From positions 136,874 through 200,873 of the forward strand of contig JASGKV010000024.1 in assembly GCA_049840575.1 (NCBI GenBank): 64,000 nucleotides of DNA. Reading direction: 5' to 3'. The position numbers were made by a program, and so were the translations under genes. This DNA comes from Pirellulales bacterium (GTDB lineage Bacteria; Planctomycetota; Planctomycetia; Pirellulales; JALHPA01). A model generated the notes under the pieces. The model ran no database searches. It saw only the letters and a list, made by a program, of their open reading frames with translations, and was not told the origin of the DNA. Positions 7,365 to 61,012 of the stretch are shown here, one piece after another. Position 1 is the stretch's first letter, and each line of letters opens with the position of its first letter.

Positions 7365-7508
7365 GGCGCGATCGAGAAGGAATGTTTAAGCGAAACCTAT
7401 GGTATGAATCTAACAGATCTCGTCGAAGCCAACGGCGCAGCGGTGACACAAGGAAGAATCCGCGACGAGTGCGATCACGCGGTGTTCGAGTCGCGCGAGC
7501 CGGTTCGA

Positions 7509-8510: not shown

Positions 8511-8915
8511 GCGGATTCAGGTAAAAGGCGAGGAATCGGGCGTCAAGGATAGCGTTTCCATTGAATGGGTCGAGAGCAATCCGAGAGACCGTAATAGGAG
8601 TCACGGACAAACACCGCAAATCACACAGACAACCCAAACAACCTGCGAAATTGCCTTGTGAGTGCATAAAAATGATTTCCGAGCTTTCGACTTCGAGGTC
8701 TCGCCTTCAGGAAAAACTTCACATCCAATTAAACTGTCGATTTGATCGACACTCCATGATTTTCTTTCGCCAGGGTGTGTCGAGCCGATCGTCGGAGGGT
8801 TAAAACCAGAAGACGCCCCGGTTACCGCAGAATTTCCCAGTGGCTACTGCAAGCCAACGTATCGTCCACACCGTTTTTTCTACATAACCTTCGCCTGTTT
8901 TCTCGGAGTGATTGC

Positions 8916-23603: not shown

Positions 23604-23971
23604 GGTCACTTCCTGCTTCGATGAGACGCGCGCGCAATACCCGATCGGCCACCCGTTTGGCGGGCGGTGATCAAGCGATGTACGAATCCGTCGCCGCCAG
23701 AAAAGCGGACAACGCAAGGGGCGCAAGATGCGTGGGAAAACGCTCGTTGCGAGATGCGATGTGTGTCACCCGACGACGCGATTGTAACCACGCTAGCAGC
23801 ATCGTCAAAGCACCAATTGCCGACGTCCCGAAGCGATCGAAACGAGTTCTTTCTTATCGGTCCGAATTGCCCGAGGAATGATGCGAATCCCACCTCGACC
23901 GGAGCGATGAATTTTTTCGCCGGCGGTTTTCGCGGCGTGGAAAAGGTGTTTGGATTCGGTCAGGATCGCGT

Positions 23972-36217: not shown

Positions 36218-37975
36218 TTACTTTTTGGCGACGGCGCCGCCGTTGCGGATCAGTTCGGCTTCCAGATCGCGAAACAGCTTTTTCAATTCGTCCCAATCGG
36301 CGCTGGTCGGAAGATTCGGGCTGTTGACGCCGACCTTGAAGCCGAGCTTCCGTTGCAACTCGAACAACTTCGCCTTGACCGGAGGAGGAGGTCCTTGTTC
36401 GGCGAAGAAGTTCGGCTGCCAGCGCGGATCGAGCCGCGCCAACGTGTTGGTCAACGCGACGTACGCCAAGTACCGCTGCACCGCCTCGTCCCAGCTTTCG
36501 ATCGCCGGCGAGACCGAGACGCCCAGGCCGTACAGGCCCGATCGAACGTCGGCGTCTTGATATGTTTCGAGTTCGAGCGCGGCGAGTTCCCCTTCGAGCG
36601 CGGTCAACGCAGTCTCGACCGCCGAGCGGGCGTCCTTCGGCGCGACGTACAGTTTTTGCATTTTCTTGCGAACGTCTTCGAGCGCCAGGCCGACCTTGGT
36701 CTCTTTCCCTTGCTCGTCTTTCCAGAGGAAATCGTTTTGGATACGCGAGAAGTGCCAGTTGCCCCAGGGCAACGTGCCCGGGCGACGCGGATGCCCGGCC
36801 GGCACGCCCTGCACGTCGAGGCGACGCCAGCTCGATTCGCTGAGATCGTGATGACAAGCGAAGCAATCGTATTCGGTGAACTCAGGCCACGTGGCGGTCG
36901 CGCGACCCAGCATCATCTTCGAGGTCAGGTCTTCGCGCAGATGCGGGTTTTCGCCCTGGCTGTCGAGCAGGTCGATCCGTTGACGCAGCAGTCGCAATGC
37001 GACGACCGCTTCGGCCCCCTGTCCGATGCTCCAGAGGCGGGCTTCGATGTCGAGCGGCCGATCGGGAATCTTTTCCGAGCCCGTCGCGCGGGCCATCGCT
37101 TGGCGATCTTTCGAGTCGTCCCAGTGCTTGGGCATCATCGCTTGGAACGTCGAGAACTCGAAGTTCAACCGCGGGTGGCCCGCGGCGATCAAATCGTGGT
37201 TGACGTCGCGATCCGGACCACCGACGTGACACCGCATGCAAATCGCGGCGCGGCTGCTGAGGTCTTTGGTGTTCCACATCTTGTGCGCGTCGCCGACCGT
37301 TTTGGACGGATCGACCGACAGCGTGCGATACCGCTTGGCGTCGGCCTTCCACGAGACTAACGTGTGCGGACCCTTCCATTTCTCCGACGGACCGTGACAC
37401 GCTTCGCACGATACGCCGTCGGACAACGCGAAGTCCGGCGGCGGCGTCTCGGCGTCGGTCATCGACGAGTGGCAGGTCAGGCAGCGGGCGTCTTGCTGCG
37501 GCTTGCTTTCGCTCCACGGCTTGTCGGGCTGGGCCGACGGGCTTTTCACCGCGCCGTCGAGCAACCAGAGAATGCGTTTCGAGCGGTCATCGGTCAGCAC
37601 GCGGTAGGCGTTACGATGCGGATCGTTCTTGGTTTGATAGACGACCGTGTAGGCGTTTTTCCAAGTCGGCGTCACGTTCGCGGACGCCGGTCCGCCGTGG
37701 CAGGCGGCCGAGGCGCAAGAACTGACGCCCATGAATTTCGGACCGGCGTGCGGATCGGCGGCGTTCGGCGCGGCGTTGATCGCGACCGGCGTCAGACGGT
37801 CTGCTTCCGCGAAATTAACAACCTCGGCCGGCGATTCGGAAACGGGGATCGGCGCAGGCGCCACGAATTCGGCCGGCGCGGTTTGCGCGAACGAGAATTC
37901 GCGACCGACGGCCAAGGCCAAGACGAGCGCAAACCGGCGCGGCGGATACGAAAACGAAGATGGAACGACGCGTCA
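36218..37975 (-). CDS. secreted pentaheme c-type cytochrome; 1 apparent frameshift in the signal peptide region
   Basis: Five CxxCH motifs: CASAACH, CLTCH, CEACH, CMRCH, CFACH. ATG 37975 (MTRRSIFVFVSAAP..., own translation) joins the ORF 36218..37921 frame after a 1-nt shift. Confidence 0.7.
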
Positions 37976-38115
37976 TACCGAAAATCCCCGGAGTGTTACC
38001 GTCGAGCACGCACTCGACGTGAACCGACCACGCGCGCGAAGGTCGCGACGCGTCTGCGGCGCAAACTCTAGCGTACGGACGGGGACTCCGCGGGATCCCA
38101 TTCAACGTGTGACGA

Positions 38116-40552
38116 TTATTCGGCTCGCAACGGGTTGGCGATCTGCCACAGTTGCGGTCCGGTCATACGATGCGCGGCGTCATGGGGACATGCATACACG
38201 CAACTCGGTTTGTCCAAGGGGTCTTTGGCGTTGATTTTCGTGCACAAATCGCACGTAAACGCCTTCAGCTTCTGTTCGCCCTCGTCGTCCCGAATCGGGT
38301 GCAGGTTGATGTTTCCATAAGGACAGTTTTCGGCACATTTGCCGCAACCAATGCACCAATCCTTGATGACGACCTCTTTTCCGACCTCGCGATGGATCGA
38401 TCCGACCGGACAACCCACCATACAGAAAGGGTCGTAACACGAACGACAGGCCGAGGCGACCAAAAATTTGTCGAACCGCAGCCCTTCGCGCGTCAGACGC
38501 GACACGCGGTCGGGGTGCGCGCTCGGCACACGCCTTGGCGCATTCGTCGCAACGCGTACATTTTTCCAAATCGAGAACCAACAGACTCTGCGCGTTGTAC
38601 AACCCTTGATCGAGGAACGGTCCGAACCCCGGCGAGAGGTAGCCGCCGGCCTGAGCTTCGTTGGAACGCAGCCGTTCGGCCGCCGTCTTCAGCAGTTCGG
38701 TCTTGAGATCCGGAAAGTCTTCCAAGATCTAAAAAGTCGTCGCGGCGAATGCGCACCAAATCGACGTGATCCAACGCCGAACACGTGGCGGTCCGCTTCC
38801 CCTCGGGCGTCAAACCTTTGAGTTCGTCGAAGCCGGAGAGCAGACCGATTTCGCCGAAATAGCCACCGGGACCGATATAGTTGAGCACCATATCGCCGTT
38901 GGCGACCTTCACCGAAGCCGGTGCGAACCATATAGAACGCGTCGGCCGGGTCGCCTTTGCGAAAGATGGTTTTTTTGGGGTGCGAACGCAGCAAGTCGAC
39001 CTTATCGCGCAGCCCGTCGATAAACTCCTCGGACCGGGCGGGGTTTTTCGCGAACAACGACTGGAACAAGGGGACTTGCCGCAAGTGGTTGTCCAACACA
39101 CGCGCGCGATACAGAATCTCGCAGCGTTTCGCGCGATCGACGCGTCCGCTGCATCATGTAGACGACGTTGCGCAGGATTTCGAGCACCACGACGTCGCCC
39201 CGCCGCGGATCGTCGCCGACCGCGGGTAGTTGTTCATGCAGGCCATCTCGCCGAAGATGCGGTCGAGACGGTCCATCGTGGTGACCGGATCGCCGTACCG
39301 CAGCGTAACGGGAGCGTCGGAGAGGTTGATCACCTGGCGCGACGACGCAGTGTCGGATTTACCACCGGGGCTTAAGAAGCCGAAGATTTTCGAAAAGATT
39401 CCTCCGCCGGCATCATCTGCCGAGCCGGAAGTTTTGATGCGGACTTCGACCTTGCCGTATTCGATGATGAACGCGGTCGAGCCGTACTCGCCCTGGCGAC
39501 AGATGATTTCGCCGTCGCGATAATGGCGGCGTACCACCGCGCCGAAGTTCCAATCCAGAAACCGTTCGGACATATCGCCGAACAAATCGGGATGGCAGGC
39601 GCACAGTTCGGCGGCCGGCACCGGGCCGGGGCGAATTTTGCGTTTGACCGTCGGGCCTTTGGCGGGTGACGTTTTCAAGCCGCTCATTGGGGTTTCTCCG
39701 CCGCGGTTTCGGCCAACACGCCCGGGTCGTCGGCGGCCAGTTCGATCTCGATTTCGCGTTCCGGCGTGCGATCCATCACGATGTTGATGACCTGCCGATT
39801 GGTCAACGCGCCCGTCGGACACGAGATCATACATTCGCCGCAAAGCGACGCACGACGATTCACCCATCGGTTGGTCGTCGTCGAAGGCGATCCGCGTTTG
39901 ATACCCTTTGCCCATCCGGCCGATGACGAAATTGCTGCGGATTTCGGTACAGGCCCGCACGCAACGGTCGCACAAGATGCACGCGTTGTGATCGACCTGA
40001 ATAATCGGCGACGAATCGTCTTCGCCCCGATCGGGCGACGTGCGCGGGTAGTGATTTTCGCGGGCTTGGATCATTCGCCCGATGCGATCCAGTTCGTTTT
40101 CGGGCATCGTACGCCCATCGGCCAGCGAGGGACGTTGGTAATCGCTTTGCAACAATTCCACGACCGTGCGCACGATCCGCGCGATGCGTTCGCTGCTCTT
40201 CAACGTCGAGATTTCCATCCCGCCGGCGACCGGTAGGTAACAGGCCGGCACGAGCGACGTACGTTTGTTGCCGTTCCTGTCCGTAGCCGTCAGTTCCACC
40301 AAACAGGCGCGACAAACGCCGACCGGTTTCATGTGCTGTTGATGACACAGAATCGGCACGGGAACTTCCTCTTCTTTCAAGACTTCCACATACAGCTTCT
40401 GCGCGGCGTCGTAGATCGTCGTTCGTTGCGAGAACAAATCCTTATCATCGGGACTATATTTCGGCTTCAAAGGACTGATCGAGACTTCGTGCCCGTCGAT
40501 TTTCAACTTGACGGGACCTTTGGACTGCAATTCGGCCCCGGTGCGCGCCCAT
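38116..40552 (-). CDS. Fe-S fusion protein: NuoG-like N-terminal [2Fe-2S]+[4Fe-4S] module, two cyclic-nucleotide-binding domains, and a C-terminal 2x[4Fe-4S] ferredoxin; several apparent frameshifts
   Basis: ORF 39154..40530: KLKIDGHEVSI...TIYDAAQKL...PILCHQQHMKPVGVCRACLVEL (2Fe-2S). QVDHNACILCDRCVRACTEI...IGRMGKGY...ESSC (NuoG-type His/Cys 4Fe-4S). First CNB domain ...RRHYRDGEIICRQGEYGSTAFIIEYGKVEV...IFGEMA...PRSATIR. ORF 38493..39101: second CNB domain ...NYIGPGGYFGEIGLL... ORFs 38180..38725 and 38116..38529: CTRCDECAKAC and CxxCxxCxxxCP repeats (CMVGCPVGSIH, CIGCGKCAENCPYG, CDLCTK..CVYACP). The start is ATG ~40552 or TTG 40530. Confidence 0.6.
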
Positions 40553-40596
40553 GCTCGACGAGCAGATCGCCGATGACTTCGAAAAACTCTAAATCT

Positions 40597-42546
40597 TCAG
40601 CCGGCATCGGTCGCTCCCGGAACAATGATGTGACGACGAATATCGTCCGGAAAATACTTCAGCACGGTCAGAATCGAATTCGGTACGACTTGGCCTAGGC
40701 CGCAGATCGAGGCGTCGATCATGACCAAGCCGAGTTCCTTCACCAGATCGTCGTCCAGCGCGACCCCGCGGTCGAACGTTTGACGCAACATGTAGGCCAT
40801 CTTCTCGGACCCGACGCGACACGGCACGCATTTGCCGCACGATTCGTTGCGGTAAAATTCGACCGAGTTCAACGCCTGATCCAACATATCGGCCCGGTCG
40901 TCGTACGCGACGAACGCGGCGCCGAGCATCAGGCCGCGACCGAGCTTGAACGTCTCCAGATCCAACGGCATGTCGAGGATATCGAGCACGTCGTCGGCCG
41001 ATTTCATCACGCCTCGTTTGACCAGTTCGTCGGCGTAGCGCGGCGAGATTTTTTTGGGTTCGATTTTGTCCGGCAAGAACCCGCTGGAAGGCCCGCTGGT
41101 GGCGATCGCCTTGAGCGTACGCCCCGGCCGCATGCCTCCGGCGCATTCCATCACCAATTCGCGCACCGATTGACCGAACGGCACTTCATAGACTCCCGGT
41201 TTGACGACGTCGCCGCTGATCGAGACGAACCGCATGCCTTTCGCGCCGCGGACGCCTTGTTCGGCGTACCACTTGCCGCCGTTGACGTAGATCGAGGGTG
41301 TCCACGACAAAGTCTCGACGTTGTTCAACAGCGTCGGTTGGCCGCGATAGCCTTCTTCGGAAATGCTGGGCGGCTTGTTGCGCGGTTCGGCGCGGCGATC
41401 TTCCATCGCGGCCAAGAGCGCGTTCTGCTCGCCGCAGATGTATCCGCCCGGGCTGACGTAAACCGGTTTCAAGTCGAACGACAGGCCGCTCCCTTGGATG
41501 TTGTCGCCGCAGATCCCGCCGCGCCCAGGCGTCGCGCACGGCGGCGTCGACCGCTTCGATCTGGTCGTGGTATTCGTGACGAATATAGACGTAGCCTTCG
41601 GCCGCGCCGGTCGTCAAGCCGCCGAGGATCACGCCTTCGAGCACCAAATGCGGAAAACGGAGCAGCAGTTCGCGGTCTTTGAACGTCCCCGGTTCGCTTT
41701 CGTCGCCGTTACAGACGACGTATTTCTTGGCCACTGGAACCGGCAAATTCTCGCGGCGGCACTTGGCCAAGATTTCAGGATCGATCTCGCTCAGTTTGGC
41801 TTGGCTGACTGATTTCCATTTCTCGCCGGCCGGAAAGCCGGCCCCGCCCATTCCGCGGAGATCGGCGATTTTCAGCTCGGCGAGAATCCGCGCGGCGGGG
41901 TTTTGGCGTAGCGCCTTGATCGCGGCCGATGGTTCTTCGTCGGGCTTGAGGTTACGCTCCAGCTTGTAGAGTTCGCCCAGAAGTTCCGGCGGAGTCTTGC
42001 CGCGATACTCGGTATGTTCGGCGAGGAACGTTTTCCACTCGTTCAAGAATTTCTTGACCGCGCCGTACTCGGCCTTCCCGCCGTACGGGTCGACCTTCCA
42101 CGGCAGCGGCGTGCGATCCGGCGCGGGGGGATGCACGTGTTTCCCCGCGTGGGCTTGCGTCATCAGATCGACGTACTGTTCGGCCGCCATGCCGGCGAAC
42201 GTGTGGTCGTCGATCAACACGGCGACCGGTTCGTCGCAGCGGCCGAGACACGAGACGCCGTGGACGGCGATCTGCTCGGTGGGGGATTTCGTCGCGGCGT
42301 TCAACTCGGCCGCGCGACGTTCGAGCGCGCGTTTGCAGGCGTCCGATCCGCGTAAGTGGCAGGCCATGTCGCGGCAGACCATCACTTCGGTCTTCGGCGG
42401 CGGCGCAGCTTGAAGTGCGGGAAAAAGCTGGCCACTTCATGCAAACGATACAGCGGCTCGCCGATGCTTTCGGCGGACGCTTCGAGCGCTTCGTGCGGCA
42501 ACCAGCCCTGCTCCGCCTGGATGCGACGTAATTCTTGGACGATCAT
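40597..42546 (-). CDS. NuoE-NuoF fusion: thioredoxin-like [2Fe-2S] ferredoxin domain + NADH-binding FMN 51-kDa subunit with [4Fe-4S]; 2 apparent frameshifts
   Basis: ATG 42546 overlaps the upstream gene stop (ATGA). NuoE-like: MIVQELRRIQAEQGWLPHEALEASAESIGEPLYRLHEVASFF...VCRDMACHLRG...GVSCLGRCDEPV. NuoF-like: LRGMGGAGFPAGEKWKSV...KYVVCNGDESEPGTFKDRELL...PHLVLEGV, then ...ESCGKCVPCRVGSEKM (4Fe-4S) in ORF 40597..41472. Confidence 0.7.
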
Positions 42547-44160
42547 GGGTTCCGATCCGGGGGATTCGCTTCGGTTCGGGCGGCACGCACGATCGCCTGC
42601 GACTGTTCGTAATAGCGTTCCAACGGCGTCGATGCCGCGCTCCGCGCGACGGCGGGGCGTTTCTCCGGCCAAGGATGTTGGGATTGATGATAGCCGTGAC
42701 ACTCCACGCAATCCGAACGGGCGTGCGTGATCGACTTGTCCGCGGAATTCACGCTGTTCGGCGCGTGACAGCGGACGCAGTTGTCGCGGTCGGGGATCAT
42801 CACTTTTTCGTTGTTGGTCGCGGCGTTCGCACCTTCGCCGAAGGCTCCTTCATGACACGTGCGACAGTCCTTCGAATCCTTGGTCGTCACGTGGGGAGTG
42901 TGATCGAACTTCGCGTGCGCGTACCACGTTCGCGGAACTTTGGTCGGCGCGATCGCGGGGAACAGCGTCGCGCCTTTATCTTCGGCGAATTCTCCGGAAA
43001 CCGTGTGGCATTCGACGCATTGGGTTCGTGTGAGATACTCGGCCGATTTCCGAATTTCCTGCTCCGCTTCCTGACGCTTCGTCTCCGACAGGATACGCGG
43101 GGCTTCGTTCCCCGGGATACGGCGCTCCGGATCCGTGGGTTGCTTATCCAACTCGGGCGAGTCCTGCATCGCCTGCGTGTAGACGGTGTTGCGAACGAAA
43201 CGCGACAGTTCGTCGGGCGTCGACTTATGCACGACCATCGCGCCAGGCGTCCCCGACAAGCCCGCTTGATACGGCAACTGGTGGCAGGCGACGCAGTGGC
43301 GTTCGAACAGCACCGGAAGATAGTTCTTTCCGACGGTCGCGGATCCGGTTTCACCCGAAGCCAACCCGGCGTCGCCGAACTTGGGATTGTCGCGGGTCCG
43401 TTCGTGACAGGACGAGCAGTCGAGTTGCACCCAGCCTTCGTTCTGCACGGATTTGCCGGTGCCGTAGAGTTCGCGGTATTGGGCCGCTTTGCCGACGTTC
43501 GCGCCTAACTCGGCCATGCGGACCAAATCGGTCGGTTGACGCGGCACTTCTTTACGAGCTTCGCCTTTGACGTCGTCCCGCAACGTCTGCGGCAGCCCGG
43601 CGGTCATGTGCAAAGCGTGGTTGAATTTCAACTTGCCCGGATCGACTTTGATCGAGCGAAAGTCGGGGTGTCCGGCGGCGAACGATTCGATCTTCGCGGC
43701 GAACGGCTTCGCCGGATCGCGCGACGGGCCGTCCATATGATCGGCCAGATTCGCATGACAAACGGTACAGTGTTGATCGGCGACGAATTTGATATCGGCC
43801 GAACGACCGAGGTGATCGCGATGGCAAACGGCGCAGTTGGCTTCCAGCGCGCCGAGTTGCTTGTCATACATTTCGTTCTGCGGCGAGTGCGGGCCGGTTT
43901 TCTTGTGGCATTCCAGGCACTTCGAGTCCATCGTCGAGACCCACTCGGGCCATTTCTGTCCGCCGGCGGAACCGGAGATCGGCGTGAACGAAACGTGGCA
44001 AGCCTGACACTTGGCGTCCAACTGTTGATGCTTGGCGATCAACGGTCCGTGCGAGATGACGTATTCGCCGTTATCGGCCAAAGCCGGATAGAGCGCAAAC
44101 GCGCCGGCCAAGAAGATCGCGGCCAACCCGGCGCGGGTCTTCCAAGCGTCCCAGCGGTTG
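42543..44160 (-). CDS. decaheme c-type cytochrome with N-terminal signal-anchor
   Basis: Ten CxxCH motifs: CQACH, CLECH, CAVCH, CTVCH, CSSCH, CVACH, CVECH, CRTCH, CVRCH, CVECH. Likely GTG start 44160 giving MPRDYLRRYNRWDAWKTRAGLAAIFLAGAFALYPALA. The tracked ORF extends to 44315 with an implausible N-terminus. Confidence 0.7.
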
Positions 44161-44331
44161 TAGCGACGAAGATAGTCACGCGGCACGCGCGGTGCGACGC
44201 TTCGCTTCCGGCGGCGGGAGCAGCGGATTTTGCGTAGCGGACATTGCCGACGAGACGAGAGAACCAACCGTACCCAACCGTTGCCGCGACGGACGCCGCC
44301 GCGACATGACAACACGAGCCGACGAACGAAA

Positions 44332-45289
44332 TCACAGGTACTTCAAGGCGTACAGCACGTGCACGAACATCAAAACAACCAGCGCGGCCGACAAAGGCAA
44401 ATGCACCAACAACCAAGAATGCAACCAAGCGTGGAGTTTCGTTTGGAGTTCGAACTCGCGACGCTGACGACAAAGATCACCGAGCGCCTCGACCACTTCG
44501 TCTCCGCCCGGTCCTAATCTGCGACGCAGACCTTCGAAAATTCGCTCGGCGCGCCCCGAGGCGGCGAACGACGATTCTCCGCGTTTCTCGCCGCGCAGAA
44601 AGGGACCGATCTCGGTCGCGTACAGTTCATCCAGAGCGCTCGCGGCCCCGGGTTCCGCGCCGGCTAGGTTCAAAACCGCGACGTTTCGTTCCAGCGTCTT
44701 CTCCTGCCACGGTCGATAACCGCTAACGGCGAAATTCTCTTCATACGCCGGTTCGACCTTCACCGTTTTGAGGGCCGATCGCCCAAGCGACGCCGCGACG
44801 ATCGCTTTGGCCTCTTGATCGAGTTGCGAGGAGACGCGTTCGACTTGGGAGTGAATCGTTTCCGACGGAACTTGCTCGTACATCGTCCGCGGGATGTATT
44901 GTTGCAGGACCAATCCCCAGACGCCGCTGAGAATGACCACGGCGAACAACACCATCAGTATCAGCGCCAGCCAACCGTCGAAACGAAAGCCGGAATGCAG
45001 GACGATTAACGGAACGGTCAACAGACCGAGCCAGATATGTGCGCATCCACGTTTGCGCGCGACCGATGCGCCAGGCGCGCACTTTCTTCCGCGGCCAAAT
45101 CGCGAACTCGAAGAGGATGATCAATCCGCCGACGGTGCCGTAAACCAAGCCTGGCGCGGAAGAACCACCGACCCATTTCCCTTCTGCTTGACTGGAGATC
45201 GCGTACCACGCGCCGACCGCGATCGTGGCGACGACTAAGAACGCGACCCAGCCGCGGTGCTGTTCGAAATGTGGACCGGTGACCAACAC
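44332..45289 (-). CDS. polytopic membrane protein with conserved His in TM helices (candidate b-type-cytochrome-like membrane anchor); 1 apparent frameshift (~45020)
   Basis: GTG 45289: MLVTGPHFEQHRGWVAFLVVATIAVGAWY..., then AHIWLGLLTVPLIVLHSGFRFDGWLALILMVLFAVVIL..., then C-terminal LHAWLHSWLLVHLPLSAALVVLMFVHVLY. The function is inferred only from TM/His pattern and genomic context. Confidence 0.45.
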
Positions 45290-45626
45290 GAAATCGCCCC
45301 GATTTCATGACTTGAGGCCGAAAAACCGCGTAAAACCCGCGAATCAGACGAAATGTTAAAATCCGCGCTACCCGCTGTCAAACGAATTCAAGCCGAAACC
45401 GCGAGAATTCACGCCCTGTCGAGCGATTTTCATAGACCGCGCAAGATCTATCGATTATTCATGTTCTATGATTGCCCAGCCTTTACGATGAAGGCGAAAC
45501 GCGCGCTCGTCGGCCACTCGACGTCGCGACGATCGGGATCACAGGACGTTCGCATTCGAGACGTCGACCACCACGCGATCGCGCACGACAGCGCGATCCG
45601 AGACTCGTTCCTGGGCGCAGAAACTT

Positions 45627-48665: not shown

Positions 48666-51600
48666 ATGACGGAAAACAGCAGTCTTTGGTCGCGATTGAC
48701 CGGGCTGACCGGTCGTATCACCGCCGCGCTCTTTCTGCTGACCGCGATCTTTCCGTTGGTCATCTATATCTTGTCCAGCGAAATCGCGTCGGACACGATC
48801 CTCAAGCATGAGATGGACGATTTAGCCGACGAATCGAGCGATAGCTGCAACGACTTGATCTTGAAACTCGAACAGCTCCGGTCGGACGTATTGCTGCTGG
48901 CCTCGGATATTCAAAATCCGTCAGCCGGTGTTTCTAGGCTTCAAGGGCGATAAAACGCCGACTGCCACGAATCCCGAAGTCGTTGATCCGAAGAATCCCG
49001 GAGAGCCGGATGGCTCGCAAGACGGTACCGAGAAGGCTCTGGAGGAAGTCAAGCGAAATCTCAAAGGCGTCACCAAGGAAGAAGTTCAAGAACGATTGAA
49101 ACGGGCGTTGGTGGAATCCTCTTCGGATGCCTTGGACCCCTACTTCAATTACGAATCCGCCGCCGCAGGCCCCACCTATCTCCCGGGCGTCGAAATCGAA
49201 TCCGTTTACATTCGCGCCGCCGTCTTCAACCGCGACGAGCAGGGGCTGCACGAACTGGGAATGGTTCACAGCGATACGATCTATCGTCAAGGCGAAAGCG
49301 AAGAAACGAAACGCTCCGCGGATGCGGCCGCGATCGACCAATTGAAGACGCTTCTGCCGGAAGCCGAAGCGCGACAAGCGCGTGATCGCACGGACGTCTA
49401 TCTCTCGGACATCTTGGTCAATCCGGAAACCGGGCGTTATACGATTTGGGCGATTCTGGTCATTCCCAAGCTCGATGAAAAACAAAACGTCTTGAATACG
49501 ACGCCGCGCGTCGGCTTTGTCGCGATTCAACTGAATTGGTCGCGATTGATACGCGAGATGGATCGTTCGAATCGCTTGTTAATGTTTCTGGCAGGCAAGC
49601 AGGATGCCGTTTGGAAGTTTTTCGAGCATCCCGAGCAAGACCATCTGACCACCAAGAAGTCGGAGACGTTGCGGCAGATCAATGGCATCGAAAGCGTCAT
49701 CAACTACGAACACGACGACCTCGGCAACTATTCGCCGCTGGATCTCGAAAAGATGCTGGAAGAACGCTACGAAGACCTTAGCGCCCGCAGCAACACGCTA
49801 GGCAACGCGTTTAAAAGCTCACGATTATCCTTAGTCGACGTCCGCCGATATTTCATCGTGGGCTTTATTAATCAGGAGTCGATCGAACAGTATTACCAAG
49901 ACGATCCCAAGCGGCTCGCCGCTGCCGAAAGCCATGCCGCCTATGTCGAGGAACGCCTGAACGCGGAACGACCGGACGGAACTGGCAAGATCGATCAGCG
50001 TCCCGCGAATTATCTCAAGAATCTCTATTACATGCGGATGCTCTGGAGAGAGATGTTCGCGTTACGCGAGAACGAGGAAACGCTGCGTTTCCTGCCTCCG
50101 TTGGATCCTTCGCGACTCGGCCAAATCAACGACCAACGGTATATGGTCAACGGGCGCATGACGCCCGGACAACCCAAACCGGCTTGGATCCCCGCGGTCG
50201 AAGAAGTCTTCCAGAAATTCCACCTCGCGCCGTCGAAGAAAAGTCGCGTAGCGGCGATGAATTATCTGCGGTCTTGGAAAGACTATTCTCAAGCCGAGAT
50301 GGAAACGTACGGCTTGTATGTCGAAAAGATCCCGCTCGACAAAAACGCCGCGGTGACTTCGGCCGAGCCCGCAAAACAAAAAATCCGCTATTTATTGTAC
50401 GGCGCAGCCGCGTCGTATCAGGAAATCGAAGCCGACATCCAGCAAAACCTCTGGGTGTTAAAACTCTTACTGATCGTCGCATTGATCAGTTGCGTGTTGT
50501 TCGCGATCGGCGTATCGAAAACCATCACGAAACCCCTGCGCGGATTGTTGACCGCTATTCAACACGTCGGAACGTTGCGCGGAATACGCGACGACGCCGA
50601 GTTGCCGGTCGACCGATCGGACGAAATCGGTCGCTTAGCCCGCGCGTTCTACTCGATGAACGACGAGCTGCGCAGCAAAGAAGATCGTTTGCGCGACGAA
50701 AAGGCCTACGCGATGGCGATCGTCAATGCGGTCGGAGAAGGGATCGTCACGTTCGACGAAGACGGCAAAATAATCGGCGTGAACGTGGCCGCTCGAAAAA
50801 AGCTGTTCCAGTACAAATCCGATACGCAATTGATCGGCCGCAACTTTTCGGAACTCTTCGCCAACGACGATTGGAACAAAGAAGAAGATATGGAGAACGC
50901 GCTGTCGCAGCGTCGACTCGCAAGTGGCGTCGTTCACGATCATGCAAAAATTGTACGAACCGACCGAATCGGTCGGCATGCGAGCGGACGGCACGACGTT
51001 CCCGATGGAGTACATCCTCAGCGAGTTTCCGCACGGCGGGAATCGTTTCTACACGGCGATCGTCCGCGACATCAGCGAACGCAAGAAATACGAAGAAGAA
51101 CGTCGCCAACGGCGGCGCGAACTGGAACGCGAAGTCGAGCGCAAGACGCAAACAATCCGCGAAAGTAAACGCAAAATCGAAGAAACGTATCAAAAACTGG
51201 AAAGCGAACAACGCCTGAAAGATACATTTCTTCTCGCTTTGACTCACGAAACGAATAACCTGCTGGTCCCCATCATGGGCCATGCCACGGCCTTAGCGCG
51301 AAAGATGGCCGACGATCCCATGGTGGTCGATCGCTCGAACAAGATTCGGCGATCCAGCGAACGCATCCAGCAACTCAGCAACGAGTGCAAGAATTATCAA
51401 AAATTGGTGATGGGCAAAGTCGATTTGACGCCCGTCGAATTCGATCTTAGCGAACTCATACGCGGGATTGCCGAACAACTCGAAGAACGCGCGACGAAGA
51501 ACGAAAGCCGTATCGTTCTCGAAGGGGTCGACGCTTTGGGCAAGATCGTCTCCGACCAAGAACGAATAACGCAAATATTAACCAACTTGGTCGGTAACGC

Positions 51601-52762
51601 TTGCAAGTTCACCAAGCAAGGGACCATCACCATCGCTGCCCAACGTTTGGATCAGAACGCCGGCAATTTCGTACGCATCGACGTGCGAGACACCGGAGTC
51701 GGTATGTCGCCCGAGCAGGCGGACCGATTATTCAAACCGTTCCCGATGATCTCGACCAAGGAACAAAATCCGGACGGGACCGGCTTGGGACTGGCTTTGT
51801 GTAAAGATCTCTGCCGCATCCTGGGCGGAGATATTTCCGCTTCCAGCGAACAAGGCGTCGGATCGACGTTCAGCGTGGTGCTGCCGATCGAACTCCGTTT
51901 GGAGAAAAATCCGGAATCGGCCGCGGAAGAGCACCACGTTTCGACCTTGACCAACGTTTTACGTCCGCACGCGAACGGAGATAAGAAATCGCGTCGGGTG
52001 TTGGTCATCGACGACGATCCGAACGTCTGCGATTTGATGCGCGAGTTTTTAGAGAACCACGGCATGGTCATCAGCACCGCGCACGACGGCCAAACCGGAC
52101 TCGAAATGGCACGAACCCAAAAGCCCGACGTCATCACTCTCGATGCGATGATGCCGAACATGGATGGCTGGACCGTGTTGACGCTACTCAAATCGGATCC
52201 ACAAACCCAACGCATCCCGGTCGTGATGGTCACCGTAGCCGACGATCGAAAGCGGGGCGTCTCGCTGGGCGTCTCCGACTATTTCACAAAGCCGATCGAT
52301 TGGCCGCGTTTGACGCGAATGCTGCAGGATTACACCGGCGGCGAGGCGGCCCCGCGCGTGCTGGTCATCGACGATCAGCCAGGCACGCGCGAGATGTGTC
52401 GCGAGACGCTCGCCGGCAACGGTTGGATCGTGGTCGAAGCCTCGGACGGCGTCAGCGGCTTGGCACAGGTCGAGGCGGCGAACCCGTCGGTGATTTTGCT
52501 GGATCTGTTGATGCCGAATATGGATGGATTCGAGTTTCTCGAAGAGTTGCGCGCTCGCCCCGACGGCGCGAAAATTCCGGTGGTCGTGATGACGGCCAAA
52601 GACTTGACGGACGAAGATCGTTTACGATTGAACGCGCGGGTCGCCGGCGTCATTATGAAGGGAAGATTGTCGACCGACGAACTCTTACAGGAAATGTTGC
52701 AACGCGTGAAATCCATTCTCGAGACGCGCTCGGATCGCACGAAAGAGGTGTCGGTTGGCTAA
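48666..52762 (+). CDS. hybrid sensor histidine kinase (large extracytoplasmic sensor, TM, HAMP, PAS, HisKA, HATPase_c, two receiver domains); 2 apparent frameshifts (~48930, ~50930)
   Basis: ATG 48666 (TM LFLLTAIFPLVIYIL). ORF 48928..51168 has the periplasmic domain, second TM (LWVLKLLLIVALISCVLFAIGVS), HAMP (AFYSMNDELRSK) and PAS. ORF 50924..52762 has H-box (LALTHETNNLLVPIMGHA), N/G boxes (LTNLVGNACKFT, DTGVGMS, GTGLGLALCKDL), REC1 (RVLVIDDDPNVCDL...ITLDAMMPNMDG...) and REC2 (RVLVIDDQPGTRE...ILLDLLMPNMDG...). Confidence 0.7.
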
Positions 52763-53149: not shown

Positions 53150-54794
53150 ATGTCGCAAACTCCGCTCGCACCCGACGCCGGCTCGACGGCCGGGCCTATC
53201 CCACGCCGGAGCGCGTCACATGCCGGTCTAACGCGCGGCTACGTAATTCGTATCCGCGAGGATTTAAGCTCGCCGCTCCGCGCGATCCGCGACTTGGCGT
53301 CGGAACTCGCCGCCGGATCGGCTGAACGCGAGGCGACGTTTTTCAAACGTTTAAACGGCGTCGTCAAGGCCAGCGACGCTTCGCTCGAAACGATCCTGCG
53401 CTTGTGCGACGCCGAGAAACTCGTCGGCGCGGAGATCGATCTTGCGGCGGAGTTTCACACGATTCGTCATGACTTGGCGAATGCCTCGACGATGATGGTC
53501 GGTAATTCAGCGTTGTTGCTACGGGACGAACAGGCGGAAAAATTCGGAACGATGCTTTCCGAACTCAAGCAAATCAAGGATCTCATCGAACTTTATCTAC
53601 GACGAGTCAAAGCGGTACGCCCGGAAGCGATCGCCGATCCTTTGGCCTGCGAAATTCATCCTCAATTCACCGTGACGCAAGATACGACGTCGAGCGAAGA
53701 TCTCGCCAAGGTCTTGCGACCGTCGACATCCCGCCCGGCCGCATTTTGGTCGTCGACGACAATCAAGACACGCTGGATGCGATCACAGCGATCCTGCAAG
53801 ACGTCAAACACGTCGTCACCGCGTTGGACAACGGCACGGCGGCATTAAAATTTATCGAAAAACCCGAGAACCGCGACGCGATCGACGTGGTGCTGCTGGA
53901 CATTCGGTTGGGGAACGAGAACGGCTGCGAAATACTCGGTCGTATCAAATCCATGGCCTGGATGGAGCATGTTCCGGTCGTGATGATTTCAGGGCTGGAA
54001 GATTGGGACGTCATCGCCAAGTGCATCGGCGCCGGGGCGGACGATTATCTCACCAAACCGCCGCGACCGACGATGTTGTTGTCGCGGATGAAGAACTGCT
54101 TATTACGCGTCCGCAACTATCGCGATAACGATCGCGCCAAACGAGTTTTGTCTCAACGTTCGAAAGAACGCGACGGTATCATTCGAAGCCTGTTCCCCAA
54201 GCGGATCGTGCCCGACGTCATCGGGCTGAACGATATCACGCCGAAGCGTTACAACGACCTCGCCGTGATGTTTTGCGACATCGTCGGCTTTACGTCGTAC
54301 TGCGACACGCATCAAGACGATCCGCACAAGGTCGTCAGCAAGCTGCGCGAACTCTTTGAAAAATTCGAGGACGCCGCCGACGCTCATAACGTGGATAAAA
54401 TCAAAACCATCGGCGACTGTTTCATGGGCGCGTGCTGGCCGGAAGACGTCAACAACAACGTCGAAAGCTGCATCCGCGCCGCGCAGGAAATGATGAAGGT
54501 CGCGCAGGGGCTCGATTGGAAACTGCGCATCGGCATTCACCAAGGAACGGTCGTCGCCGGAAAAGCCGGTAAGAAGCAGTACTGCTTCGATCTGTGGGGC
54601 GATACGGTGAATTTGGCCGCGCATCCAAGGCGAAGCGGCCGAGGATTCGATCGCGCTCAGCCATCAGGCGTACGAAGCGGTCCGGGATTTATGCCAAGCC
54701 AAGGACCTGGGTTACGCCGAACTGCATGGCAAAAAAGAGCCGGTCAAGCTCTATCAGTTTCTTCGATTTTGGGATCAAGATTGAGGCGATTCCC
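53150..54794 (+). CDS. signalling protein: N-terminal helical H-box-like region + receiver domain + class III adenylate/guanylate cyclase catalytic domain; 2 apparent frameshifts (~53750, ~54620)
   Basis: ATG 53150. ORF 53120..53848: ...EFHTIRHDLANASTMMVGNSALLL... ORF 53746..54801: REC (ILVVDDNQDTLDAI...VVLLDIRLGNENGCEIL...PVVMISGLED...DDYLTKP), cyclase (LAVMFCDIVGFTSYCD...KIKTIGDCFMGACW...RIGIHQGTVVAGKAGKKQYCFDLWGDTVNLAA). Own translation of the third frame gives the natural C-terminus ...AYEAVRDLCQAKDLGYAELHGKKEPVKLYQFLRFWDQD* (stop 54792-54794). Confidence 0.65.
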
Positions 54795-54812
54795 GTTTTA
54801 ATCGTCTCTAGT

Positions 54813-56447: not shown

Positions 56448-58504
56448 TTACAACAACGGATTCCGATTGAACTTCGAGTACGGCAACCGCACGTTGCGGA
56501 TGAAGTACATATCTGCACGCAGCGCCGGAGGCGCGGCATAAGCCAACGAAGCGGCGGTCGTCACCACGTCGTCCTGATCCACGCCGTCGCCGCTGACACC
56601 GAGCCCACCTAGCAGAGTGTTGCCGCTATACAAGCCGGAACTGCCTGGGAAGAAGACGACGCCGTTTTGATTCGGGCTGCCCGCGATCCGCGGATCACGG
56701 AAATTTCGCCCAACATTGAAGGAATCGAACATCAATTCCGGTGTTGTGTTCGTTGAGTATGCGGAAAACGGCATGGCCGTCGTCAAGTTCTCGGCATTAG
56801 CCGAATTGATACCTGCGGCTAAGAGACTAGAGAACGCTCCCGGGGGAATGCCGACCGCAGTTCCGGTCGGGTATCTGGAAGATGCCAGATACCTAAACGT
56901 TCGCGAGGTGTATGCAGTCAAATTCGGCGTGGTCGTTGGATCGATCGGATCGTTCGGTTTGTCGGCGGCGACCAGCAGCGAAGAATTGTAATACGCCACG
57001 TTTCGCGCCTTGGCCACCGCGACGTCGATCGAGAAGACCGTGGCGTCCGGCATCCGGAACAACCCGACGATATCGCCGTTCAGATCCGCGACGGCGAAGA
57101 CCATCGCTGTAAACTGACCAATCGGCAAACGAATCGCTGGCGCGTGGCCTTGGCTTGGATCACACCCGCATTAATGATTTGTTCGACTTGCGCGGCCGTG
57201 ATCCCGACGCCGTCGGTCGGTTTGACGATCCACTTTTGCGGAACCGTCTGCCCGTTCCAATATCGGAGCATCACATCGTCACCTGTTCCCAAGATTCGAT
57301 CGGCGCCGACGCGATCGACGACTTGGTCCAACACAGGATCGTTAACGGTCACGTTTTCCGTTCCAGCCGCCGCGCCGACTTGCATAAGTCTTGGAATACC
57401 TTGCGTCACCGCGTTACCCGGACCGATAATCTCCACCGTGATCCCAACTAAATCGATTCGATTGCTGTTGAGGTCCAAGTTGGCAGGCTTAAACGACATG
57501 TTAGTAGGGAGTGCGGGAACGTTCGCGATGGCACCGACCCCCCCCGCTGCCGCAAAAGCCATGTACTCGGCCTGCAAGACCAACGGCGCGTTTAAACGGT
57601 TGCTTTCCAGTGTCGTTTGCGCAACTCCCGGGTTCAGCGACGCCTTGCTGAAGTTCTGCTCGAAGATCGCCGTACCGGTCGCGCCGGGGAAGAAGACACC
57701 GATCCCTCCCACCAATTCCGATCCTATATAGAGGGGAATACCACCGGGCAGTGTCGCGATGCCGCGCGATTGTCCGTTCTGGTAAACACCCGAATCGTAG
57801 CCGTATGAATCGGGGGCATCACGTAAATAATCCATTACATCGATAGGTATCATGGGATTCGGGCTGGCGATACGGCCATCGTTTTTGATGTTAAAGCGAA
57901 ACTGCATCGGCATATCGTCGGCCGTGCCGCGAATCCCGTCGGCGCCGGGATGCACGATTCCGTCGCGATTCGTATGCTCGATCCCCAGCAGATCCACCAG
58001 CCCCGTATTGTTCACACCAGGCGGAAACGTGCCGGCGATCCCAACCGGAGCCACGGTTCCCGGACCGCGCAAAGGCGAATTCGGGTCGGTGATATAGGTC
58101 AGCGATTGAACTTCGCGCTGTGTGATCGTGGATTGACTGATGAAACGAACGCTGCGCGATGTCAAGGGAGCCTGATCGTTGGCGAAAAACGCGGCCGTAC
58201 GAGCTTTGGCGACCGCGCCGTCGATAGCGAAGGTCAGCGTTTCCGGGGTTGTAAAGGTCGACAGGACTTGTGCTTCGGTCCGTACGCCCAAGATTTCGCC
58301 GCGACGATCAACTACGGCGATAATCGCATCCTGCCGCGCCGAAGCGGCGGCCGCACGTGCCAGCAAAAGTTGAACGTCAGGTACGGTCAAAACCGCCATC
58401 AAACGTCGGTCTTCTAATGCTTCGAACGCATAAGCTCGATTGTGTTGTCGCTGCGAGTTGTTGGACGCGGTCATTTTCGGCCCCCACCAGGGTTTTCGAC
58501 TCAT
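56448..58504 (-). CDS. large secreted protein with two GlcG/heme-degrading-like (DUF336-type) domains; 1 apparent frameshift (~57100)
   Basis: ATG 58504 (MSRKPWWGPKM...). An N-terminal ...FEALEDRRLMA motif, then ...LLLARAAAASARQDAIIAVVDRRGEILGV...AIDGAVAKARTAAFF... (first GlcG-like domain). ORF 56448..57128: ...AMVFAVADLNGDIVGLFRMPDATVFSIDVAVAKARNVAYY... (second). Family resemblance from memory. Confidence 0.45.
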
Positions 58505-58785
58505 AGAAATCGCGCGTTTCAACCAGATTCCCGGCGAATCCGCACCAACCGATCCTAGTTGTCCGTAACAAACGTAACAACATCTTCGTCGTTCAAATCG
58601 GGAAATCTGGGAGTTTTCCTTAGGGGCGGTAAAGTCATTAAAAACCGTTCAACACTTGCCATGCGGGATACCGATACGTCAATTACGAGCAGTGCGCGCG
58701 GCAATCCGCATGCTATCGCTACGACCGGACGTCGCGCCGTTGGTACGGACGTTTCTCGTAGGCTCGGGATTCAGGGCAAGTCTCG

Positions 58786-61012
58786 ATGTTGCGTCTCCCC
58801 CACTTCAGCCGAATCGCGTCCGCCAAAACCCTGCGTATCACGCTGGGTTTGTGCTTTGTGATGGGCTTGGGTATCGCCGCGGCACAAGTCACTCCTCTTG
58901 TGACGGCTCCGCTGAATCCACTGGAGTCGACGAGCCCGGATGAAGCGGGGTCTGACGTTAAAATCGTTCCACTCAACGGCGTTGCGCCGTTAGAGAGAGG
59001 AACCCCTAACGCCTCGCAGCCGAAATTGATTGCACAGTCGAATGTCGGTGCCGACGAGCCACGCGTGCGATTGGTCAGCTTCGCCACGATCGATGCGCCG
59101 TCCGCGACGAACACGCAATCGCTGATTTACAGCCCACCACAGGGCAGAGCGCCGGCGCCGAACGAGAGTGGTTTTCTTCAACTACCGCCGATAACGAACG
59201 ACATTCTTGCGATGTCGGATCCGACACGGATCAAACCCAGCGTGTTACGTCCGCCCGGCGACATTGACCGTGCGTTATTGCCTCAGCTGGACGACTCGAC
59301 AGGGGTCGAGGACTATTTTTATCCGATCGAGGCGCCGTTAGGTTACACCGGGCGCTCAGGGATTCTTCCCAGCGAGAATCCCCAAGACGCGCACTTCGTG
59401 CCGATCGAAGATCGCTGGCGTTCGGGCTTTCCGGCTTGGGATCGCTACGGCAAAGGTCATCCCAACATGGATGACTACCCTTATGTCGAAGGCAACGTGT
59501 GGGATCCGTATAACCAAAACGTGCTGAAGGGCGATTATCCGATTTACGGGCAGCACACGTTTTTGGTCCTGACGGCCGAAAGCCAAGCCATCTTGGAAGG
59601 CCGCCAAGTCCCCACGCCGACGACTCCGTTCGAAACGACCTCGATCCCGGGCCAAACCGATTTCTTCGGCAATCCGAATCAGTTCTTTTATACGCACTAT
59701 TTCAAACTGAGCGCCGAGTTGAATCACGGCGACGCGGCGTTTAAACCCGCCGACTGGAAAGCGAAAATCTCGCCGGTCTTCAACATCAATTATCTGCAAG
59801 TGAACGAACTGGGGATCGTCAATACGAACCCTTTGGCGGGCGAAGACCGTTTCCGCAGCGACTTCGCGTTGCAAGAATGGTTTTACGAAAGCAAATTGGC
59901 GGATCTCGGTCCCGATTACGACTTTGTTTCCGCACGCGTCGGATCGCAGTTCTTCACCAGCGACTTCCGAGGCTTCATCTTCAGCGATACCAATCGCGCG
60001 GTACGGTTATTCGGCACAAATAACGCCAACCGCGATCAGTTCAATTTGGTGTACTTCGACCAAACCGAAAAAGACACCAACAGCCAGTTGAACACCTTCG
60101 ACGATCGTCACCAGAACACGCTGATCGCGAACTATTACCGTCAGGACTTCCTCTGGCCCGGTTACACAACCTCCGTCAGCTTCCACTACAACCGCGATCA
60201 ACCGGATTTCATCTACGATCGCAACGGCTTCTTCAGCGCGTCCGGATCCGGTCGGCATCGCCCAACCGCACGAGATCGAATCGTACTACATCGGCTGGGC
60301 CGGCGATGGTCATATCAACCGCTTCAACATCAACCATGCGTTTTATTACGTGTTCGGCACGGACGAGTTGAACCCTTTGGCGGGTCAGCAGTGCGATATT
60401 CAGGCCTACATGGCCGCGATCGAACTGTCCTACGATCGCGACTGGGCGCGTTTTCGAACTTCGTACTTCTTCGCGTCCGGCGACGGCAATATTTTCGACG
60501 ATAAGGCACGAGGGTTTGATTCAATCTTCGACAATCCGAACTTCGCCGGCGGCGAGTTCAGCTATTGGCAACGCCAAACGATCGGTCTGTTAGGCGTCAA
60601 TCTGACGAACCGTATGAGCTTGGTTCCGGATCTGCGATCCAGCAAGTTCCAGGGGCAAACGAACTTCGTGAACCCGGGACTGCATCTGATTAACTTCGGC
60701 GCCGACTTCGATTTGACTCCCAAGACGCGCTTGATCACCAACGTGAACTTCCTCTGGTTCGATCAGACCGAAGTTTTGGAACAATTTACTTTTCAAAACG
60801 ATATTGATCCGTTCATAGGCACCGACCTAAGCCTAGGGATCGAACATCGTCCCTATCTGAATAACAACGTCGTGATCGTCGCCGGCATCTCCGGATTGTT
60901 GCCCTGTGCCGGTTTCGATGATCTTTACGGCGGCTTAAACCCGCTGACGTTGACCCGCAAAAACCCCGATGCGCTGTTCGCCAGTTTCATGGAGATCGTG
61001 TTCCTGTATTAA
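58786..61012 (+). CDS. large secreted/outer-membrane-associated hypothetical protein; 1 apparent frameshift (~60240-60350)
   Basis: ORF 58786..60504 has a signal peptide (LGLCFVMGLGIAAAQVTPL) and long Asn/Asp/Tyr/Phe-rich sequence. ORF 60350..61012 continues (…NFLWFDQTEVLEQFTFQNDIDPFIGTDLSLGIEH… ending ...MEIVFLY). Alternating aromatic/polar pattern is compatible with a beta-rich OM protein. Confidence 0.45.

Follow-up and report, generated by a model that had tools for sequence, protein, structure and literature searches.

Introduction

The ptdABCDEFG operon, a penta/tetra/deca-haem cytochrome cluster, was named in 2024 as 'not previously described' and of unknown function (bioRxiv 10.1101/2023.11.21.568154). 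It encodes an NAD(P)-binding oxidoreductase, a cyclic nucleotide-binding (cNMP-binding) iron-sulfur (Fe-S) protein, a ferric-reductase-like membrane protein and a decahaem cytochrome, and it has been reported from marine Proteobacteria, Nitrospirales and Planctomycetes; accessions of the Ptd proteins are given in Table S7 of that preprint (for example MBT5131319-25 and QTD51412-19). Here we describe a cluster of similar outline in a 64,000-nt stretch of DNA (the window) from a Pirellulales (Planctomycetota) metagenome-assembled genome (MAG). Five genes on the minus strand at 36218-45289 encode, in this order, a membrane protein of the DUF4405 family, a decahaem cytochrome c, a NuoE-NuoF fusion (NuoEF), a NuoG-like protein and a pentahaem cytochrome c. 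We propose, with a probability of about 0.55, that the products of the operon form a complex which takes electrons from NADH and exports them from the cytoplasm, possibly without quinones. An initial annotation of this DNA had suggested an NADH:multihaem-cytochrome oxidoreductase of a composition not described before. The first part of that suggestion gains support here from domain content, synteny and a variant in Sphingobium, while function, direction of flow and quinone independence stay conditional. As to the second part, a literature search found no characterisation of a NuoEF-multihaem cytochrome cluster and did not find the name ptd in the later papers that it covered, but a similar operon had already been named in the 2024 preprint. 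The cluster is therefore classified as a NuoEF-type variant of a kind of operon that is so far little known and uncharacterised, set beside ptd by description.

Established systems available for comparison include Hmc and Tmc of sulfate reducers and FdnGHI. A four-cluster protein of the DmsB/NrfC/HybA type usually has a membrane anchor to dock on; FdnH, for example, docks on the dihaem protein FdnI. To our knowledge, every characterised bacterial chain to the periplasm or cell surface passes respiratory electrons through the quinone pool. A direct path from NADH to cytochromes, apparently controlled by cyclic nucleotides, would be a different design principle, and it would predict how Acidobacteriota and Planctomycetota, anammox bacteria included, may balance their redox state or reduce extracellular compounds; both phyla are abundant in soil and water yet little understood.

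Results

Gene order and integrity of the operon

The five co-directional genes were found at the coordinates proposed at annotation. The DUF4405-family membrane protein (44332..45289, minus strand), a candidate dihaem b cytochrome of about 320 aa with a frameshift near 45040, is followed on the same strand by the gene for the membrane-anchored decahaem cytochrome c (42543..44315), which is intact and has an alternative GTG start at 44186, the start used by NCBI. The NuoEF fusion (40597..42546, about 650 aa) has frameshifts near 42420 and 41525. The NuoG-like Fe-S/cNMP/ferredoxin protein (38116..40607) is about 829 aa long when stitched across some eight frameshifts, and the secreted pentahaem cytochrome c (36218..37976) has one frameshift in its signal-peptide region; its true start is the ATG at 37976, corrected from 37921. 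The predicted ATGA overlap of the decahaem stop (TGA) and the NuoEF start (ATG) lies at 42546-42543, and the NuoEF stop overlaps the NuoG-like start by 11 nt. The remaining intergenic gaps are 16-145 nt and 139 nt. A consensus scan gave no convincing terminator between the five genes, and gave a sigma-70-like promoter match (TTGACA-17-TAACAT, 45353..45381, minus strand) just upstream of the first gene. This is a consensus match only; such sites are no commoner in the region than in shuffled sequence.

About 12 frameshifts are spread over four of the five genes (one in the membrane protein, two in NuoEF, about eight in the NuoG-like protein and one in the pentahaem signal peptide). They were located by homologue-guided tblastn; a frame plot of GC content at third codon positions was discarded as too noisy for counts. 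If these shifts were genuine, the window operon would be a set of decaying pseudogenes, a reading that could point to the density of the lesions (about 12 in 9 kb, eight of them in a single gene, with the decahaem gene unbroken). The sites, however, are short G/C or T runs, and genes unrelated to the operon are shifted as well: same-strand overlapping open reading frames at 5452-7105, 22463-23726 and 48928-52762 indicate further frameshifts and fit an error-prone, probably long-read, assembly. The orthologous operon is unbroken in another Pirellulales MAG (locus L001). Moreover, the stitched NuoG-like protein retains 212 of the 225 invariant columns of a 13-member family alignment, keeps every Fe-S cysteine motif and has no internal in-frame stops, whereas genuine decay would bring many substitutions. 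We conclude that the frameshifts are almost certainly sequencing errors, and regard decay of the operon as very improbable.

A predicted cytoplasmic NADH module

The fusion protein matches the Pfam families 2Fe-2S_thioredx (PF01257), Complex1_51K (PF01512), SLBB and NADH_4Fe-4S (PF10589). Its cofactor sites are a thioredoxin-like 2Fe-2S domain, a flavin mononucleotide (FMN)/NADH site and an N3-type 4Fe-4S domain, and the motifs GGAGFP and GDESEPGTFKDR are legible. The NuoG-like protein matches Fer2_4, Fer4_Nqo3, two cNMP_binding domains, Fer4 dicluster domains and Fer4_11. Its N-terminus, closest to HoxU, HydA, FdsA and NuoG, has one 2Fe-2S and two 4Fe-4S motifs; the two cNMP domains have canonical FGE...R[ST]A cassettes, and the C-terminus is a ferredoxin domain of the DmsB/NrfC/HybA type with four cysteine clusters. 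The NuoE/F/G-like assignments made at annotation thus hold in Pfam and NCBIfam searches, and all the domains then named are present. The NCBIfam NuoF model gives the fusion 335 bits, below its equivalog cut-off of 559, and the NuoG model gives the NuoG-like protein 75 bits (cut-off 470). All scores are under the NCBIfam equivalog cut-offs, which argues that the module is not that of complex I, Hox or formate dehydrogenase (FDH). No transmembrane (TM) helix or signal peptide is predicted in either protein, and the two cytochromes have a membrane anchor or a signal peptide, the topology that had been anticipated.

The absence of a hydrogenase or FDH partner, noted at annotation for this locus, extends to its relatives: Pfam searches found no such catalytic subunit in the window flanks or in loci L001, L086 and L087, and none occurs among the annotated recurrent neighbour clusters of 80 related loci. 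Failed profile searches, or a catalytic subunit adjoining the module in relatives, had been named as grounds for giving up the assignment; the profile searches succeeded, and no such subunit turned up in the contexts and neighbour clusters annotated. Genes for a Q-module or membrane arm are likewise missing from the window and from the annotated related loci. Electron bifurcation is not favoured, since neither Pfam nor inspection of the fusion shows the additional ferredoxin domains that HydB-type subunits have.

Two side observations concern the NuoG-like family. Some clades (for example P0081, P0145, P0170 and P0153) have a 'DHPxPC...H...C' motif at alignment columns ~420-450, which recalls the His-ligated cluster of NuoG and HydA and is absent in the clade of the window protein. 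The L001 protein (6226-8985) has an RRM-type RNA-binding domain inserted in its N-terminal 2Fe-2S domain at residues ~80-150, with matches to Pfam RRM_1, NCBIfam Rbp_regulator and, in the PDB, PABP and PUF60. This insert is absent from the window protein and 12 further aligned homologues.

The membrane protein and the two cytochromes

Pfam DUF4405 (PF14358) is matched by 42 of the 49 members of the membrane-protein family. The L001 orthologue (P0176), to which the window protein is 53-62% identical and which is unbroken, scores 28.3 bits against a gathering score of 26.7; the frameshifted fragments of the window give weak scores, against related models, and a few family members match Ni_hydr_CYTB and Ferric_reduct weakly. 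A profile of the 49 orthologues collects 661 clusters (50% identity) at E ≤ 1e-30. The family alignment has four invariant histidines (H99, H293, H299, H313) and a nearly invariant fifth (H85); H85-x13-H99 and H299-x13-H313 are two H-x13-H pairs on two helices. An AlphaFold2 model with a mean predicted local distance difference test (pLDDT) of 81 has five long membrane helices and a cytoplasmic insert of ~150 residues between TM4 and TM5. From the positive-inside rule we infer that both histidine-bearing helices run from inside to outside, which would stack one haem near each membrane face. A DUF4405 protein has been purified and binds haem b, and DUF4405 has been grouped with the MsrQ, PepSY-like and FezC cytochromes as proposed transmembrane electron carriers (PMC11334425). 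The annotation had cast this His-rich protein as the transmembrane conduit; membership in a haem-b family and the histidine pairs are consistent with such a role, which the protein may well have.

The presence of two multihaem cytochromes, one with ten haems and the other with five, was confirmed by motif counts and Pfam. The decahaem protein, 100% identical to NCBI protein QM811_27630, has exactly 10 CXXCH motifs, a basic N-terminal tail and a single N-terminal anchor TM helix; at least 10 further histidines are conserved in its family, which is compatible with all-bis-His haems. The pentahaem protein has a signal peptide; its haem motifs are one CX4CH and four CXXCH, and ~200 aa at the C-terminus form a non-haem domain. 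Five haem motifs are present in 42 of the 46 members of its family, and five further histidines are conserved. Both proteins match Pfam cytochrome c7/c3/c554 families, the pentahaem that of cytochrome c554. The number of additional conserved histidines agrees with the haem number in both families, which favours electron wires over catalytic haems; a catalytic role of the cytochromes is not favoured on the same count of distal histidines. The AlphaFold2 model of the decahaem was poor (pLDDT 63) and without a Foldseek match, and was not used.

The unusual CX4CH is the first haem motif of the pentahaem (window 37715-37695, residues 69-75), and it is kept in 43 of 44 sequences. Some decahaem homologues (Sphingobium, locus L088, 12096-13895; P0054) have a cytoplasmic FHA/Yop-YscD-like domain before the anchor helix, which suggests phospho-threonine-dependent regulation on the cytoplasmic side.

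Linkage across two phyla and exchange of the input module

With the L001 proteins as queries, tblastn was run on 80 related loci anchored on the NuoG-like protein, 50 of which hold at least 20 kb. The NuoG-like/cNMP/ferredoxin family has at least 1673 matching proteins, and relatives are encoded in the genomes of at least 567 species. Carriers include Pirellulales, Gemmataceae, Isosphaeraceae (the cultured Tautonia sociabilis), Phycisphaerae, Candidatus Kuenenia stuttgartiensis and many Acidobacteriota; besides T. sociabilis, Tundrisphaera and Sphingobium herbicidovorans offer cultured carriers. In 47 of the 50 longer loci a stretch of 10 kb holds the genes for all four core proteins (membrane protein, decahaem, NuoEF and NuoG-like protein), and 45 of these 47 also have a pentahaem. 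Gene order varies: Pirellulales and Gemmataceae have membrane protein, decahaem, NuoEF, NuoG-like; Pirellulaceae have a cytochrome between decahaem and NuoEF; and Acidobacteriota have NuoEF, NuoG-like, membrane protein, decahaem, with the cytochrome divergently transcribed. The arrangement of the four core genes is far beyond chance. Synteny in relatives, which the annotation had proposed as a check, thus links core and cytochromes in both Planctomycetota and Acidobacteriota, and a linkage that outlasts rearrangements across two phyla speaks for a functional unit. An early impression that the decahaem family is rare (55 relatives in the first search) reflected limited sensitivity, as tblastn on the loci found it nearly everywhere.

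The megaplasmid pMSHV of Sphingobium herbicidovorans has a different input module. There the cNMP and four-cluster domains are joined to an N-terminal TrxR/YpdA-like NAD(P)H flavoprotein (Pyr_redox) that replaces the NuoG part, and the next genes encode a homologue of the membrane protein with both H-x13-H pairs and a decahaem homologue with ten CXXCH motifs and the cytoplasmic FHA-like domain; NuoEF is absent from the locus. Two unrelated NAD(P)H-oxidising modules on one constant core are what a wire from NAD(P)H to cytochromes predicts, and this exchange, a natural experiment, is the best evidence for such a flow of electrons, as far as gene content can speak for it. A match of the Sphingobium flavoprotein domain on a Pseudoalteromonas plasmid was rejected, as it sits in an unrelated glycosyltransferase cluster.

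The occurrence of the cluster in anammox Kuenenia (L011 and L012) raises the possibility of inward flow, in which low-potential periplasmic or extracellular donors would reduce the cytochromes and, through them, NAD+. This would be relevant mainly to anammox bacteria. NuoEF-type modules are reversible, and the pentahaem has a match in the cytochrome c554 family. Where Kuenenia obtains its NAD(P)H is still debated (PMC12954380). Most carriers, on the other hand, appear to be heterotrophic soil or water Planctomycetota, Acidobacteriota and Sphingobium. Reduction of NAD+ from typical c-haem potentials would be uphill, electron entry would work against the membrane potential, and the cluster encodes no coupling ion-pump subunit. 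We therefore consider inward flow improbable. The Kuenenia stuttgartiensis MAG has the whole set within one 18-kb stretch (L012, 4603-22450): two pentahaems, NuoEF, NuoG-like/cNMP protein, HbpS-like protein, barrel-like protein, membrane protein, decahaem and cyclase.

A proposed path for electrons and the role of quinones

In the path that we propose, the cytoplasmic NuoE-F flavoprotein would oxidise NADH at FMN and hand electrons to the NuoG-like protein, whose Fe-S chain starts with the 2Fe-2S cluster and a pair of 4Fe-4S clusters and goes on through four more of the 4Fe-4S kind. The C-terminal DmsB-type domain would dock on the cytoplasmic face of the DUF4405 protein, where two stacked b haems (H-x13-H on TM3 and TM5) could carry electrons across the membrane to the anchored decahaem and then the soluble pentahaem. 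The final hop would probably involve a candidate outer-membrane protein and a 10-haem LVIVD protein encoded at 58.8-64 kb of the window. The cNMP domains, placed between the two Fe-S blocks, probably gate or tune the flow in response to cyclic AMP or GMP from linked cyclases. Fe(III), Mn(IV), humics or some other oxidant outside the cytoplasm may serve as the final acceptor.

Several points weigh against this proposal. The window copy carries the ~12 frameshifts discussed above. A structure search of the PDB with the model of the membrane protein gave no significant relative. The related b cytochromes FdnI, HydC and CbcL use quinones. Electrons moving outward across the membrane would dissipate membrane potential, which puts the physiological benefit in doubt. 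One Gemmataceae contig (L003) has the membrane protein and decahaem without adjacent Nuo genes, and at another locus (L005) the partner is 9 kb away. At L003 and L005, the membrane protein and decahaem adjoin genes for transketolase, Rpi and 6PGD, or lie near a gene for G6PD fused to a cNMP-binding domain; by gene content, this neighbourhood apparently ties the cluster once more to the metabolism of NAD(P)H and to signalling by cNMP.

Some of these points would be accommodated by a chain coupled through quinones. The DUF4405 protein and decahaem would then form a quinol:cytochrome c oxidoreductase like CymA, CbcL or ImcH, NuoEF and the NuoG-like protein, anchored on that membrane protein too, would work as a non-pumping NADH:quinone oxidoreductase, and electrons would travel via the quinone pool. 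The weak Ni_hydr_CYTB and Ferric_reduct matches in a few family members and the Nuo-less gene pair of L003 agree with such an arrangement, and we know of no characterised Gram-negative extracellular electron transfer chain that is entered other than via a quinol dehydrogenase. Against it, the genes for the cytoplasmic Fe-S protein and flavoprotein are tightly linked to those for the membrane protein and decahaem in two phyla, NAD(P)H modules have been swapped onto the same core, and no quinone-site motif was identified. Even with a quinone step, the same four proteins would still make one NADH-to-cytochrome path. A quinone-coupled chain therefore seems to us unlikely, though less so than inward flow.

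Neighbouring genes and a candidate outer-membrane pair

The annotation had left three things undeveloped: a likely regulatory role of the cNMP domains, the cyclases linked to the cluster, and a candidate outer-membrane module elsewhere in the window. A CHASE2 adenylate/guanylate cyclase adjoins the module in 23 loci, and also in L001 and L087; a secreted HbpS-like protein does so in 23 loci. The transhydrogenase SthA (577 bits, cut-off 465) adjoins it in 20 loci from both phyla. The SthA-linked loci are among L007, L008, L017, L022, L054-L080 and L087 (Gemmataceae and Acidobacteriota), and the linkage hints that NADPH may feed the same path or be taken from it. A gene pair beside the module in 25-34 loci encodes a ~750-aa protein ending in F/Y and a ~1300-aa protein with 9-10 CXXCH motifs and LVIVD repeats.

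The window holds counterparts of most of these neighbours. On the plus strand, a frameshifted hybrid sensor kinase (HAMP-PAS-HisKA-HATPase-REC, 48928..52762) is a candidate regulator, placed with the cluster by position only, and a receiver fused to an adenylate/guanylate cyclase (53746..54801) is a candidate source of cyclic nucleotide for the NuoG-like protein. Placed between the two groups of cytochrome genes, this pair could signal to the cNMP domains; one regulatory hypothesis runs from cyclase to cNMP to an effect on the Fe-S wire. A frameshifted homologue of the HbpS-like neighbour (PF03928), a secreted protein or lipoprotein, lies on the minus strand (~56448..58522). The counterpart of the ~750-aa protein (58786..61009, plus strand, frameshift near 60235) has a signal peptide and a C-terminal aromatic residue, and may be an outer-membrane beta-barrel. 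It is followed by the N-terminal part of the ~1300-aa protein (61078..64000, plus strand), which has 10 CXXCH motifs and runs off the window end; homologues have C-terminal LVIVD repeats, and it is 63% identical to the copy of the Pirellulales locus L006. The barrel-like protein has no relative in Pfam, and neither NCBIfam (June 2026) nor the solved structures cover it, the membrane protein or the cytochromes; a sequence search of the PDB gave no solved relative of the membrane protein, decahaem, pentahaem or barrel-like protein. Sphingobium also has the barrel-like/LVIVD pair, and its cytochrome is 45% identical to the L006 copy.

The regulatory surroundings (cNMP domains, cyclases, sensor kinase and HbpS-like proteins) would suit a more modest role as well, in which the complex sends a few electrons to extracytoplasmic repair, detoxification or iron acquisition, or senses the NADH/NAD+ ratio. 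MsrPQ, FoxB and the eukaryotic NOX/FRE enzymes are parallels, DUF4405, MsrQ and PepSY-like proteins serve such roles, and outward transfer would conserve no energy. Such a housekeeping or signalling reductase would hardly account for at least 25 c-type haems per pathway which, with the LVIVD/barrel-like pair, resemble a long-range conduit, and the cluster has no conserved candidate for a catalytic periplasmic enzyme; we consider this role improbable.

The conduit-like features permit a bolder extension of the NADH-to-cytochrome path, which we offer tentatively: a quinone-independent, cyclic-nucleotide-gated export line across the whole envelope, in which electrons of cytoplasmic NADH would reach the cell surface by way of Fe-S clusters, a pair of b haems and 25 or more c haems. 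It might be a functional analogue of eukaryotic NOX/FRE in hundreds of species of Planctomycetota, Acidobacteriota and some Proteobacteria. If true, the cluster could be the missing enzyme for NADH-dependent extracellular reduction (of metals, humics, or O2 to superoxide) by aerobic heterotrophs.

Comparison with described systems

The module shares with the complex I N-module, NAD+-dependent FDH, HoxEFU and HydABC the thioredoxin-like 2Fe-2S domain, the FMN/NADH site and the N3 cluster, as well as the N-terminal 2Fe-2S and 4Fe-4S domains of NuoG/HoxU/HydA type. It differs from them in that no Q-module, membrane arm, molybdopterin or hydrogenase subunit accompanies it and that the motif of the His-ligated cluster is absent in the window's clade. 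Two cNMP domains and a four-cluster ferredoxin stand here where NuoG has its molybdopterin-like C-terminal part. Hmc and Tmc follow the same logic, with a multihaem cytochrome c in the periplasm, a cytochrome b in the membrane and an Fe-S protein in the cytoplasm, but their cytoplasmic partner is an HdrD-like protein, whereas here it is an NADH flavoprotein module. As in FdnGHI, a DmsB-type four-cluster domain likely docks on a dihaem b anchor; the domain is cytoplasmic here, and homology to FdnGHI, Hmc and Tmc is limited to generic domains. The membrane protein resembles the DUF4405, MsrQ, PepSY-like (FoxB) and FezC class in its Pfam match and in four conserved membrane histidines in two pairs. 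It has 5 predicted TM helices and a ~150-aa cytoplasmic insert where that class has six TM helices, and its partners are Fe-S/NuoEF proteins and multihaem cytochromes rather than flavinylated proteins or MsrP.

Likeness to the PtdE-F-G core is by description only. A PtdE-like cNMP-binding 4Fe-4S protein is present (two cNMP_binding domains and a Fer4 dicluster, 40607-38116), as is a PtdF/PtdG-like order of a DUF4405 protein with two H-x13-H pairs followed by a 10-CXXCH decahaem. In place of the separate FAD/NAD(P) oxidoreductase of ptd, the window has the NuoE-F fusion and a NuoG-type domain fused to the cNMP protein; SthA adjoins only some relatives, and Sphingobium has a fused Pyr_redox domain. 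The outer-membrane partner in ptd is a pentahaem with a beta-sandwich, whereas the candidate here is the 10-haem LVIVD protein; the window has a pentahaem with a C-terminal non-haem domain and the barrel-like protein at 58786-61009, and no tetrahaem was found.

MtrCAB and Pcc are alike in that a multihaem chain leads outward and a multihaem gene lies beside a large outer-membrane-like gene. The candidate barrel is without MtrB homology, its sole weak match being ExtM (81 bits, cut-off 800), and the quinol dehydrogenases of the CymA/NapC, ImcH and CbcL kinds find only a marginal NrfH match here (E = 6e-4, 50 residues). Input to the Mtr and Pcc chains is quinol, through CymA, ImcH or CbcL, whereas here it is apparently cytoplasmic NADH, by way of Fe-S clusters and haem b, with NuoEF, the NuoG-like protein and the DUF4405 protein as the entry proteins.

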